DNA of 64,000 nt, taken from assembly GCA_964016885.1 (NCBI GenBank), contig OZ024752.1, positions 46,500,001 to 46,564,000 of the forward strand, given 5' to 3'. This document shows, piece after piece, positions 54,501 through 58,986 of the stretch (within the stretch, counting starts at the first letter, position 1; each line of letters begins with the position of its first letter). Both the position numbers and the translations under genes were made by a program. Origin of the DNA: Eledone cirrhosa. Taxonomy: Eukaryota. The notes beneath the pieces are model-generated. The model had not been told where the DNA came from, did no database searches, and saw nothing but the letters and a program-made list of their open reading frames with translations.

Positions 54501-54531
54501 ATATATATATATATATATTGGCAGGCCTGCA

Positions 54532-55541
54532 TCAAGAATGGTAGCATGTACCCAGTTATTAGATTGGAGAGCTCTGTGTCAAGAATGGTACCATGTACTC
54601 AGTTATTAAATTGGAGAGCTCTGTGTCAAGAATGGTAGCATGTACCCAGTTATTAGATTGGAGAGCTCTGTATCAAGAATGGTAGCATGTACCCAGTTAT
54701 TAGATTGGAGAGCTCTGTATCAAGAATGGTAGCATGTACCCAGTTATTAGATTGGAGAGCTCTGTATCAAGAATGGTAGCATGTACCCAGTTATTAGATT
54801 GGAGAGCTCTGTATCAAGAATGGTAGCATGTACCCAGTTATTAGATTGGAGAGCTCTGTATCAAGAATGGTAGCATGTACCCAGTTATTAGATTGGAGAG
54901 CTCTGTGTCAAGAATGGTACCATGTACCCAGTTATTAGATTGGAGAGCTCTGTGTCAAGAATGGTACCATGTACTCAGTTATTAAATTGGAGAGCTCTGT
55001 GTCAAGAATGGTGCCATGTACTCAGTTATTAGATTGGAGAGCTATGTGTCAAGAATGGTAGCATGTACCCAGTTATTAGATTGGAGAGCTCTGTATCAAG
55101 AATGGTAGCATGTACCCAGTTATTAGATTGGAGAGCTCTGTATCAAGAATGGTAGCATGTACCCAGTTATTAGATTGGAGAGCTCTGTGTCAAGAATGGT
55201 ACCATGTACTCAGTTATTAAATTGGAGAGCTCTGTGTCAAGAATGGTACCATGTACTCAGTTATTAAATTGGAGAGCTCTGTGTCAAGAATGGTACCATG
55301 TACTCAGTTATTAAATTGGAGAGCTCTGTGTCAAGAATGGTACCATGTACCCAGTTATTAGATTGGAGAGCTCTGTGTCAAGAATGGTACCATGTACCCA
55401 GTTATTAGATTGGAGAGCTCTGTCAAGAATGGTGCCATGTACCCAGTTATTAGATTGGAGAGCTCTGTGTCAATAATGGTACCATGTACCATATTAGGTT
55501 GGTATATCTGTGTCAATAAAGGTACCACGTACCCAGTTATT
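54532..55541 (+). repeat. 47-bp minisatellite, about 21 copies, ending about 35 nt before RBBP5 exon 5
   Basis: Unit tcaagaatggtagcatgtacccagttattagattggagagctctgtr. Confidence 0.95.
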
Positions 55542-55576: not shown

Positions 55577-55661
55577 TGATGTCTTTATTGTGTGTCCTCT
55601 GAAACATGCTGTTGTTAAAATGGATTTCAGTTCTCATTCTATTGTGCCCCTGGATGATGAG
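55577..55661 (+). CDS. RBBP5: RBBP5 exon 5 (DVFIVCPLKHAVVKMDFSSHSIVPLDDE)
   Basis: cag|T...GAG|gtatgt; phase-consistent. Confidence 0.92.
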
Positions 55662-56021
55662 GTATGTTGTTTGTCAACACTGATGTCCTATCTACCATCT
55701 CCACTCTTGTATTTCCTATTTAATGTCCTATCAATATAACAGTCCACGCTGTAATGTGGCCGTGTAGGCAACACGGTAAAAACCTCCCAGCCCCACACTG
55801 TAAATGTGGTTGGTGTTAGGAAGGGCATCCAGCCGTAGAAAACCCGCCAGATGGTCCTATGCGAGCAAGACAATCACTCTTGCCTCAAGTGGGAAAACCC
55901 CCGTCCAAACCCATGCAAGCGTGGAACACGGACGTTAAACGTTGATGATGATGATATATATATAGTATTATTTTAATAAATATATATATATATTTATGTA
56001 ATAAACAACATAAGGCAATTA

Positions 56022-56082
56022 TTTCATTTACCAGTGGTTTCTTAAAAGCAAAAAAATTTTGCTTTCAATCATCAGAATGAAA
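56022..56082 (-). ncRNA. Mirror copy of the same hammerhead in the left arm of the palindrome
   Basis: Exact reverse complement of 56158-56218. Confidence 0.8.
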
Positions 56083-56157
56083 AAATCCTGGTGTATTTAT
56101 TGACGTTGGATTTTAAAAGGTTTTTAAAATCCAACGTCAATAAATACACCAGGATTT

Positions 56158-56218
56158 TTTCATTCTGATGATTGAAAGCAAAATTTTTTTGCTTTTAAGA
56201 AACCACTGGTAAATGAAA
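56158..56218 (+). ncRNA. Type I hammerhead ribozyme motif (Penelope-like), sense in RBBP5 intron 5
   Basis: tttcatt CTGATGA ttgaaagcaaaa-ttt-ttttgcttttaa GAAA cc-act-gg TA aatgaaa; all three stems pair. Confidence 0.85.
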
Positions 56219-56320
56219 TAATTGCCTTATGTTGTTTATTACATAACTATTAAGCTCTGTTACCTACATAGAGCACTCTTTTTTCCTGGACTTTTCAGTC
56301 GGAATTACTTCATTCACACA

Positions 56321-56369
<49 letters not shown>

Positions 56370-56442
56370 CATGTGCCAAAAAGATATATGCTCACTTCAA
56401 CAGCATTCTAATCAAAATGTGTATACATTTTGGGGGGACACC

Positions 56443-56478
<36 letters not shown>

Positions 56479-56513
56479 TTATTTAATTACATAATAAACA
56501 ACACAATATAATT

Positions 56514-56585
56514 ATTCCATTACCAAAGGTTTCAGGGAACTAGATGATCCTAACAGAAATGTCCAGTACACTCATCAGATGAAAT
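56514..56585 (-). ncRNA. Diverged hammerhead motif of the same family, antisense
   Basis: Minus strand: atttcat CTGATGA [imperfect stem II] GAAA cctttgg TA atggaat. Confidence 0.6.
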
Positions 56586-56708
56586 ATTTATATATATATA
56601 TATATATAAAATCATCCATGTATTGCTGCTATTTATTACCTTATATGGTAACAAGCTACAATTCTTTTTCCTCTTTAACTGTTGTCAACTCATCTTTGTC
56701 TTTTTCAG

Positions 56709-56780
56709 TCCGATCTAAATATAGTTGCGTCTTTCGACAGACGAGGGAAACATATCTACACGGGCAATGCAAAAGGCAGG
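56709..56780 (+). CDS. RBBP5: RBBP5 exon 6 (SDLNIVASFDRRGKHIYTGNAKGR)
   Basis: cag|TCC...AGG|gtcagt. Confidence 0.96.
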
Positions 56781-57432: not shown

Positions 57433-57542
57433 ATTCTGGTGTTTACCATAGATAACCTAGAATTGGTAGCTTCATTCCGAGTGACAACAGGAACACTCAA
57501 CACAACAGCTATAAAATCTATAGAGTTTGCACGGCGTGGAGA
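57433..57542 (+). CDS. RBBP5: RBBP5 exon 7 (ILVFTIDNLELVASFRVTTGTLNTTAIKSIEFARRG)
   Basis: tag|ATT...GGAGA|gtaagt; 110 nt. Confidence 0.96.
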
Positions 57543-58540
57543 GTAAGTTTGTTCTTTTACTCAGGATTTAAATATAACCCTCCTTGTATGATGTAGAGAG
57601 TAAGTTTGTTCTTTTACTCAGGATTTAAATATAACCCTCCTTGTATGATGTAGAGAGTAAGTTGGTTCTTTTACTCAGGATTTAAATATAACCCTCCTTG
57701 TATGATGTAGAGAGTAAGTTTGTTCTTTTACTCAGGATTTAAATATAACCCTCCTTGTATGATGTAGAGAGTAAGTTTGTTCTTTTACTCAGGATTTAAA
57801 TATAACCCTCCTTGTATGATGTAGAGAGTAAGTTTGTTCTTTTACTCAGGATTTAAATATAACCCTCCTTGTATGATGTAGAGAGTAAGTTGGTTCTTTT
57901 ACTCAGGATTTAAATATAACCCTCCTTGTATGATGTAGAGAGTAAGTTTGTTCTTTTACTCAGGATTTAAATATAACCCTCCTTGTATGATGTAGAGAGT
58001 AAGTTGGTTCTTTTACTCAGGATTTAAATATAACCCTCCTTGTATGATGTAGAGAGTAAGTTGGTTCTTTTACTCAGGATTTAAATATAACCCTCCTTGT
58101 ATGATGTAGAGAGTAAGTTTGTTCTTTTACTCAGGATTTAAATATAACCCTCCTTGTATGATGTAGAGAGTAAGTTTGTTCTTTTACTCAGGATTTAAAT
58201 ATAACCCTCCTTGTATGATGTAGAGAGTAAGTTGGTTCTTTTACTCAGGATTTAAATATAACCCTCCTTGTATGATGTAGAGAGTAAGTTTGTTCTTTTA
58301 CTCAGGATTTAAATATAACCCTCCTTGTATGATGTAGAGAGTAAGTTGGTTCTTTTACTCAGGATTTAAATATAACCCTCCTTGTATGATGTAGAGAGTA
58401 AGTTTGTTCTTTTACTCAGGATTTAAATATAACCCTCCTTGTATGATGTAGAGAGTAAGTTGGTTCTTTTACTCAGGATTTAAATATAACCCTCCTTGTA
58501 TGATGTAGAGAGTAAGTTGGTTCTTTTACTCAGGATTTAA
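57541..58540 (+). repeat. 57-bp minisatellite, 17.5 copies, starting at the RBBP5 exon 7 donor
   Basis: Unit gagtaagtttgttcttttactcaggatttaaatataaccctccttgtatgatgtaga. Confidence 0.97.
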
Positions 58541-58986
58541 TCTTTTAGCATTTAAACCAGTCATATATGGCCAGAATTCTCTCACCCCCGTTCTGTTCAA
58601 CCCGGCTGCTTTAACTGCCGAGGTTAACTTTGCCTTTCATCCTTACGGGGGGGGGGGGGGGGGGGGGGTCGATAAAATAAAGTACCAGTAATACACTGGG
58701 GGTAATTGCTGGCCTTGTGCCAAAAGTAGATACAATTAAATAAAAACAACCATGCTTTGCAGCATTGAGTTATGGCCCTTTGTTGAAAGTTCAAATCTTG
58801 CTGAGGTTAGCTTTGCCTTTCATCTTTACAGCAATTATCCCAGTAATACACTGGGATAATTGTTTCTACTTTTGGCACAAGGTCAGCAATTATCCCAGTG
58901 TATTATTATTTTTAATAATAGTAATATGTGTGTGTCTGGTCTCAGTAAATATGTGTGTAACTGGTATGTCTTCTTTCAATTTCCAG

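Follow-up and report, generated by a model that had tools for sequence, protein, structure and literature searches.

Head-to-head ends of a Hydra-clade Penelope-like element in an RBBP5 intron of Eledone cirrhosa: a likely by-product of copying

Described relatives and the locus in the RBBP5 intron

A reverse transcriptase (RT) resembling that of telomerase is the hallmark of Penelope-like elements (PLEs). For the Hydra clade of these elements, passages of PMC8557442 list the protein diagnostics as an RWK motif, a change of DKG to DKT, a CxCX5C linker, CxxC and CxH motifs around the endonuclease (EN) end, and an EN that is C-terminal. One described member, Hydra-1_Obim of Octopus bimaculoides (PMC8557442), has a stem III that reads acca-a-tggt where the element reported here has acca-c-tggt. 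Its protein is collinear with the open reading frame (ORF) described below but clearly different when the two are compared by eye, and because stem II, the cut triplet and many residues also differ, the two elements belong to distinct families. The Hydra-clade PLEs in the same source are shorter than 3 kb, whereas the element here measures 4-5 kb with a microsatellite-rich 3' region; its tail of about 65 nt exceeds the 30-40 nt given there for PLEs, and it differs further in its clear pseudo-LTRs, its many intact ORFs and a second hammerhead in the ORF-intact subfamily.

Inverted pseudo-LTRs have been described in PLEs before. In the EN+ elements Pen2/Pen2a of Adineta vaga an inverted pseudo-LTR abuts a direct one head to head and the tail is one-sided, as at this locus; unlike those elements, the minimal form described here has no element body, and the passages on Pen2/Pen2a in PMC3846280 and PMC8557442 mention no untemplated G at the junction, which is usual here. 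PMC8557442 also records a copy of Penelope-13_HM that is both inverted and 5'-truncated. How PLEs make their inverted ends is called open in a passage of PMC8557442. In the part of PMC3846280 that treats them, head-to-head palindromes are read as self-priming on an antisense template, an idea of Arkhipova et al. (2013), and the choice between sense and antisense templates is left undecided.

Two further systems bear on the comparison. According to passages of PMC11167929 (Frangieh et al. 2024), the protein of the anole element Poseidon PAc (Anolis) cuts and extends both target strands in vitro, begins reverse transcription from a pair of internal sites on either side of the tail, and takes uncut RNA as its template, while its hammerhead is dispensable for insertion. 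Each of these properties fits the genomic pattern reported here, although PAc belongs to a different clade and its ORF starts inside the hammerhead, whereas the ORF start here lies 117 nt after the tail. Metazoan non-LTR retrozymes, as presented in parts of PMC7229834 and 10.64898/2026.07.22.740005, resemble the piece at this locus in being short, AT-rich and protein-free, with a type I hammerhead and a short stem III suited to dimers. They differ in forming tandem cut-to-cut monomer arrays, and at other loci of this genome the piece described here is joined directly to an autonomous ORF.

The locus lies in a 64,000-nt stretch of Eledone cirrhosa DNA (contig OZ024752.1, positions 46,500,001 to 46,564,000), referred to here as the window and numbered from its first letter; the features are collected in Table 1. 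The main reading, to which we give a probability of about 0.8, is that a (TA)n stretch of an RBBP5 intron harbours the end piece of a Hydra-clade PLE in two copies, one direct and one inverted, and that the palindrome is a likely by-product of copying. The term unit is used below for the 195-nt terminal piece at 56122-56316, made up of the pseudo-LTR (1-129) and the tail (130-195).

An earlier, sequence-only reading of this DNA had described a mismatch-free palindrome with 125-bp arms and a 3-nt ggt loop inside an RBBP5 intron, with a complete type I hammerhead in the right arm and its mirror in the left, and these points all held. Computed complementarity between the inverted arm and 56122-56246 is exact (125/125 bp), and an extension of the arms to 129 nt is possible with one mismatch; three successive plus-strand exons match residues 115-202 of PDB 6km7_A; and all parts of the hammerhead were found by a descriptor. 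The same reading had called the tail unique, and here it was mistaken, as the tail is the one of about 65 nt common to the whole family. The window holds a single inverted pair and no tandem array of hammerhead-bearing monomers. Over unit positions 1-125 its copy carries the commonest family letter throughout, and two tail positions deviate.

Table 1. Positions of the insertion and of the RBBP5 exons around it, in window coordinates
Feature	Position	Strand	Basis or remark
RBBP5 upstream exon	55577..55661	+	AG/GT boundaries; residues 115-142 of PDB 6km7_A, E=1.2, weak alone, contiguous with next exon
RBBP5 host intron, 1,047 nt, GT..AG	55662..56708	+	contains the insertion
Left (TA)n-rich target flank	55955..55993	.	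sequence; (TA)n preference of Hydra PLEs (passage of PMC8557442)
Inverted pseudo-LTR, short-end type, unit 1-125/129, mirror hammerhead motif ~56022-56082	55994..56118	-	
Junction GGT	56119..56121	+	G56120 and T56121 match element; G56119 untemplated, likely cap-derived
Direct pseudo-LTR, unit 1-129	56122..56250	+	
Minimal type I hammerhead motif	56158..56218	+	CUGAUGA 56165-56171, GAAA 56199-56202, predicted cut after 56211
Tail on one side, unit 130-195; continues into 5' UTR and ORF in full elements	56251..56316	+	
Right (CA)/(TA)n target flank	56317..56366	.	sequence
RBBP5 downstream exon	56709..56780	+	residues 143-166 of PDB 6km7_A, E=2.6e-9
Next RBBP5 exon	57433..57542	+	residues 167-202 of PDB 6km7_A, E=4e-11

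The same intron also contains the remnant of a related PLE end, older and diverged, in which a hammerhead is still present (CTGATGA ... GAAACCTTTGGTA); it lies on the minus strand at 56484-56585, 170-270 nt beyond the palindrome tail, and shows 78% identity over unit positions 78-128.

The element family and its hammerhead motif

The feature is almost certainly the pseudo-LTR and tail end of a Hydra-clade PLE. A genome search with 56122-56316 gave 1,153 candidates, the best 40 of which were scored and found to be 97-100% identical. Exact genome matches numbered 5,152 for a 28-nt piece across the cut site (0 for the reversed control) and 549 for the short end followed by TA. The same unit bounds elements of 4-5 kb with an intact ORF for an RT and a putative endonuclease: at one locus (L031) it continues into the ORF and reappears 4.8 kb downstream, and in some copies the tail is followed by a 117-nt leader and then the ORF. 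An uninterrupted ORF of 710-714 aa was present in 10/10 long copies fetched, with the same unit at their bounds in direct, tandem and inverted arrangements. These ORF-intact copies form a sister subfamily, 87-97% identical to the window unit. Additionally, a protein search found open frames of at least 708 aa at about 24 of 150 scored places (hand count).

The ORF carries the features of its proposed clade. One ORF, joined to the terminal unit, encodes a telomerase-like RT; the structure model of this ORF had a pLDDT of 91, and the top six Foldseek rows were all telomerase RTs. Searches of Pfam and PDB with the ORF, by sequence and by profile, gave nothing useful. A VVY..YVG motif, a candidate for the GIY-YIG endonuclease, was recognized by eye and is collinear with the Hydra EN alignment in the part of PMC8557442 that presents it, and Pfam GIY-YIG matches were obtained for 1/65 aligned homologues, plus protein P0002. 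All of the Hydra-clade diagnostics listed above can be read in the ORF, as KRMRWKA, SDKTKN, CSCRKPDEC, CSLC and CPH. The earlier link to Penelope-like elements with inverted pseudo-LTRs was right and is here narrowed to the Hydra clade. The family also has pseudo-LTRs in direct and inverted orientation with a one-sided tail, a canonical hammerhead, and the (TA)n insertion preference of the clade, visible in the flanks and in the matches of the short end plus TA. On these comparisons the element is classed as a new Hydra-clade family, present here without a body and preceded by an inverted pseudo-LTR, an arrangement already known for PLEs.

The family looks recently active, as judged from sequence. 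At L075-L077, L082 and other search rows there were many near-identical intact 710-aa ORFs, several with equal scores and some in tandem or large inverted dimers. Other copies are rearranged: L026:1300-1500 is an internally deleted derivative in which the ORF start is fused directly to the sequence preceding the pseudo-LTR, and L025:599-1476 is a 57-bp tandem array made of the short inverted arm of the element. RT and endonuclease pieces of a different PLE of similar type lie in (TA)n adjoining a family copy at L023:1-1200 (minus strand) and L032:1-400, and the RT fragment beside L023 was rejected as belonging to a different PLE family. PLEs nest in one another's microsatellites, and L031:2960-3990 also contains an inserted palindrome.

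In the right arm of the palindrome, stem I of the hammerhead has 7 bp (56158-56164/56212-56218), stem II has 12 bp with one G-U and a 3-nt loop, stem III is ACC-ACT-GGT and the triplet is GUA; the positions of the core and the predicted cut are given in Table 1. The mirror motif lies on the minus strand of the left arm with H17 at 56029, and a descriptor search of the 64-kb window returned just these two matches. A scan with the Rfam hammerhead models, which had been proposed as a check on the sequence-only reading, gave no hammerhead match at either E<=1 or E<=10; what matched were miRNA models, driven by the hairpin and scoring under the gathering score. The ribozyme call therefore relies on the descriptor and on conservation within the family.

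CUGANGA, GAAA, NUH and stems I-III occur in type I order, with core and NUH intact in 131/156 distinct copies. Across the 156 copies, subfamily-level variants fall at 0/11 invariant core columns and N7 is T, G or A in 115, 31 and 9; stem changes at columns 56, 75 and 95 keep the pairing via G-U or G-C, and most stem variants still pair. The motif is apparently maintained by the element itself. Inserted copies appear to undergo neutral decay with no visible selection on the core, because rare changes, taken as mostly post-insertion, strike the core (14/1716, 0.8%) about as often as the flanks (44/3534, 1.2%, and 26/4368, 0.6%).

Folding predictions describe a modest monomer (-11.7 kcal/mol) with stem III pairing between two molecules at -8.2, as expected of a dimer-type hammerhead. 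Even without the antisense arm stem I is only marginally favoured, at a predicted probability of 0.001-0.50 depending on transcript length. Passages of PMC7229834 describe hammerheads with a short stem III as weak monomers, and the anole PLE hammerhead required protein (PMC11167929, in the part on cleavage). Any role of the predicted ribozyme would be confined to RNA of the element itself, where it would probably work as a dimer or aided by protein.

The ORF-intact subfamily (L073-L082) has a second hammerhead-bearing segment about 400-500 nt past the ORF stop (e.g. L074:6522-6632), with an intact core and a GUG triplet. This segment may be the ancestral 3' end, and its core could act on the pseudo-LTR site as a double hammerhead. 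Other, unrelated families of minimal type I hammerheads were seen in the flanks of L065, L072, L076, L080, L082, L084, L097, L098 and L106.

Junctions, ends and the route of insertion

Ends of the unit cluster at two fixed positions, 125-129 and 191-195. There were 57 head-to-head junctions among 177 loci, and 54/57 join one long end to one short end; these loci came from searches favouring one end or the other, except for 15 chosen by junction alone, among which 11/13 that could be classified show the same combination. In 59 junctions both arms reach position 1 and lie no more than 8 nt apart. This pattern itself selects complete arms, so that it does not give their share among all palindromes, many of which are truncated deeper. 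As for abundance, a hand count over the first 100 of the 5,152 matches found 12 head-to-head pairs lying within 260 bp. If these 100 are typical, a rough extrapolation gives about 600 short head-to-head insertions genome-wide.

The two arms of a locus resemble each other more than arms drawn at random. Arm differences within a locus average 2.2 columns vs 5.3 for random arm pairs, and shared deviations 2.2 vs 0.4 (33 loci), which is consistent with both arms coming from one source element. The arms are identical at the compared columns in 8/33 loci and different in 25/33. The perfect arms of the window copy thus probably reflect its youth, since such identity recurs elsewhere in the family.

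At the centre of the palindromes, GG precedes the T-run in 38/50 junctions listed (hand count), whereas read-through copies from the element body have TG in 31/33 cases and GG in 0/33. The GG is found in more than one subfamily (L113-L116, L127), and the GGT loop of the window has the same signature. Certain 5' ends (L060, L079) lack GG and begin a few bases further upstream. The extra G is known from full-length L1 insertions, where it marks copying from capped RNA (passage of PMC11702581). An untemplated junction G that is absent from read-through copies suggests that a pair of cDNAs ran off the end of a sense RNA with a cap. Narrow word searches in an open-licence library did not find a report of a cap-derived G in PLEs, which is weak evidence that none exists, and among the papers listed by one on octopus Penelope hammerheads only PMC8557442 was evidently on topic.

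An accumulation of 5' truncations where the ribozyme would cut was considered and rejected: mismatch-anchored counts were 20 at the cut site vs 17 and 48 at two control sites, in a crude comparison to which indels add noise and whose denominators are uncounted. Because there is no excess of truncations at the cut site and insertions end downstream of an intact motif, we infer that the copied RNA was uncut.

A two-ended run-off from capped RNA is the somewhat favoured route for these insertions, as read from their ends and junctions. In this route the element protein would cut both strands of the (TA)n target, and both DNA ends would prime reverse transcription on the uncut RNA of one source element, one at the short site and the other at the tail site. 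With priming on the leading pseudo-LTR of the RNA, the cDNAs would reach the capped 5' end and run off it, one at about 130 nt and the other at about 195 nt, the cap would leave a G, and the two cDNA ends would be joined head to head. The transcript start would then be at the G equivalent to 56120. The long and short ends fit the in vitro behaviour of the anole protein. However, 12/50 of the junctions listed lack GG, and the T-run/A-run could itself be a hotspot for pausing, cutting or microhomology.

In one alternative, a single cDNA of the same element would fold back and prime itself, either on an antisense template or at the palindrome TTTTAAAA, and opening of the hairpin would then give an inverted repeat. 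This is the published reading of such palindromes (passage of PMC3846280), it agrees with the shared source of the arms, and some junctions do lie on TTTTAAAA or have GG as a common microhomology (L002, L010, L027, L090). Self-priming alone gives no reason for two different fixed outer ends in 54/57 junctions, however, and it leaves unexplained the untemplated G on one or both arms (e.g. CC-TA-GG centres) and the palindromes with element body in both arms (L076, L094). We consider it possible but rather unlikely.

The palindrome might also be a non-autonomous unit, similar to a retrozyme or a MITE, that is transcribed whole and mobilised again. An identical CCTAGG centre at several loci is in line with this, as is the proposal that non-LTR retrozymes derive from PLEs (10.64898/2026.07.22.740005, in part). 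But the centres vary in length and sequence and occur across different subfamilies, the tandem hammerhead-bearing monomers that define a retrozyme are lacking (direct repeats elsewhere in the genome are separated by element body), and copies show no preference for starting or ending at the cut site. Such a unit is improbable here.

It is scarcely credible that the palindrome at this locus is a fold-back artefact of assembly or library preparation. What would suit an artefact is the identity of the arms at 125/125 positions together with the fact that no read or contig was shown to span the centre at the RBBP5 locus in two rounds of mapping, the first with one RAD-seq run and three contig sets, the second with two of each. 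The unit occurs in many copies and has skipped repeats on its flanks, which kept the locus from being isolated; in three contig sets the two private tail letters of the locus were not found together, and the DNA runs (contig sets and RAD-seq) gave a few head-to-head-type joints that are not locus-specific. On the other hand, the arms are asymmetric in the manner typical of the family, the centre has the family-typical GG, arms elsewhere differ from each other in most comparable loci, unlike a fold-back product, and the arrangement is published for PLEs (passages of PMC8557442 and PMC3846280).

The two-ended run-off has a wider form, for which we see even odds. The hundreds of short palindromes would be a fossil record of Penelope copying, with centres that map the transcription start to one base, complete with a cap-derived G, and outer ends that map the two RT start sites; the head-to-head form would come from two-ended priming on capped, uncut sense RNA and not from antisense self-priming. 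If this is true, Hydra-clade transposition could readily be tested in a family with so many intact ORFs, and host transcripts would gain a perfect dsRNA hairpin with each jump. The roughly 600 short head-to-head insertions would form long dsRNA on read-through. The junction G, the fixed long and short ends and the lack of truncations at the cut site provide testable predictions on the origin of inverted ends, and the family also supplies intact Hydra-clade proteins.

The palindrome in the host transcript

Folding predicts a hairpin of both arms at -206 kcal/mol, and a stem II probability of 0.000 if the transcript starts upstream of the palindrome vs at least 0.998 if it starts at 56120. In RBBP5 pre-mRNA the arms would pair as a 125-bp duplex, the predicted hammerhead would not form, and the intron would remain uncut. 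The sequence-only reading had proposed that the antisense arm sequesters the ribozyme in this pre-mRNA as a built-in off-switch. The sequestration is borne out by the folding prediction. The off-switch is not, as the palindrome is probably a by-product of the insertion route, similar palindromes occur genome-wide and the core decays like its flanks. Caging would be a consequence of any head-to-head insertion on either strand, and nothing suggests that it evolved as an off-switch.

There is doubt about a further suggestion of the same reading, that heavy editing could loosen the duplex. When each of the 48 A in the left arm is replaced by G, the duplex still prevails at -175 kcal/mol (a substitution in which G overstates the pairing of inosine), and editing of the right arm would strike A residues of the core and of the cut triplet. 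The idea that edited RNA has been written back into the DNA of the family was also rejected, as there were at most 3 A>G or T>C changes per copy and no A>G excess among 156 copies.

A stronger version of the same proposal is that the antisense arm has been retained for regulation, as a cage from which ADAR editing frees the ribozyme to cut RBBP5 pre-mRNA. Cephalopods edit heavily from A to I, both arms are perfect with an intact core, and folding predicts that in read-through RNA the duplex leaves no room for the ribozyme fold. Perfect arms are nevertheless usual in young copies, the window copy simply has the commonest letters over unit positions 1-125, the core appears unprotected in inserted copies, and the editing simulated above did not release the fold from the left and would damage it from the right. 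The weakness of short-stem-III monomers and the protein requirement of the anole hammerhead, cited above, also speak against a cage, which is very unlikely. The insertion is likely a tolerated passenger. As a caged RBBP5 ribozyme it would be of small importance, being one of many like insertions with no sign of host use.

The neighbouring RBBP5 introns contain minisatellites of 47 bp and 57 bp, at window positions 54527-55500 and 57527-58600, and the 57-bp unit copies the 5' splice site of the preceding exon.
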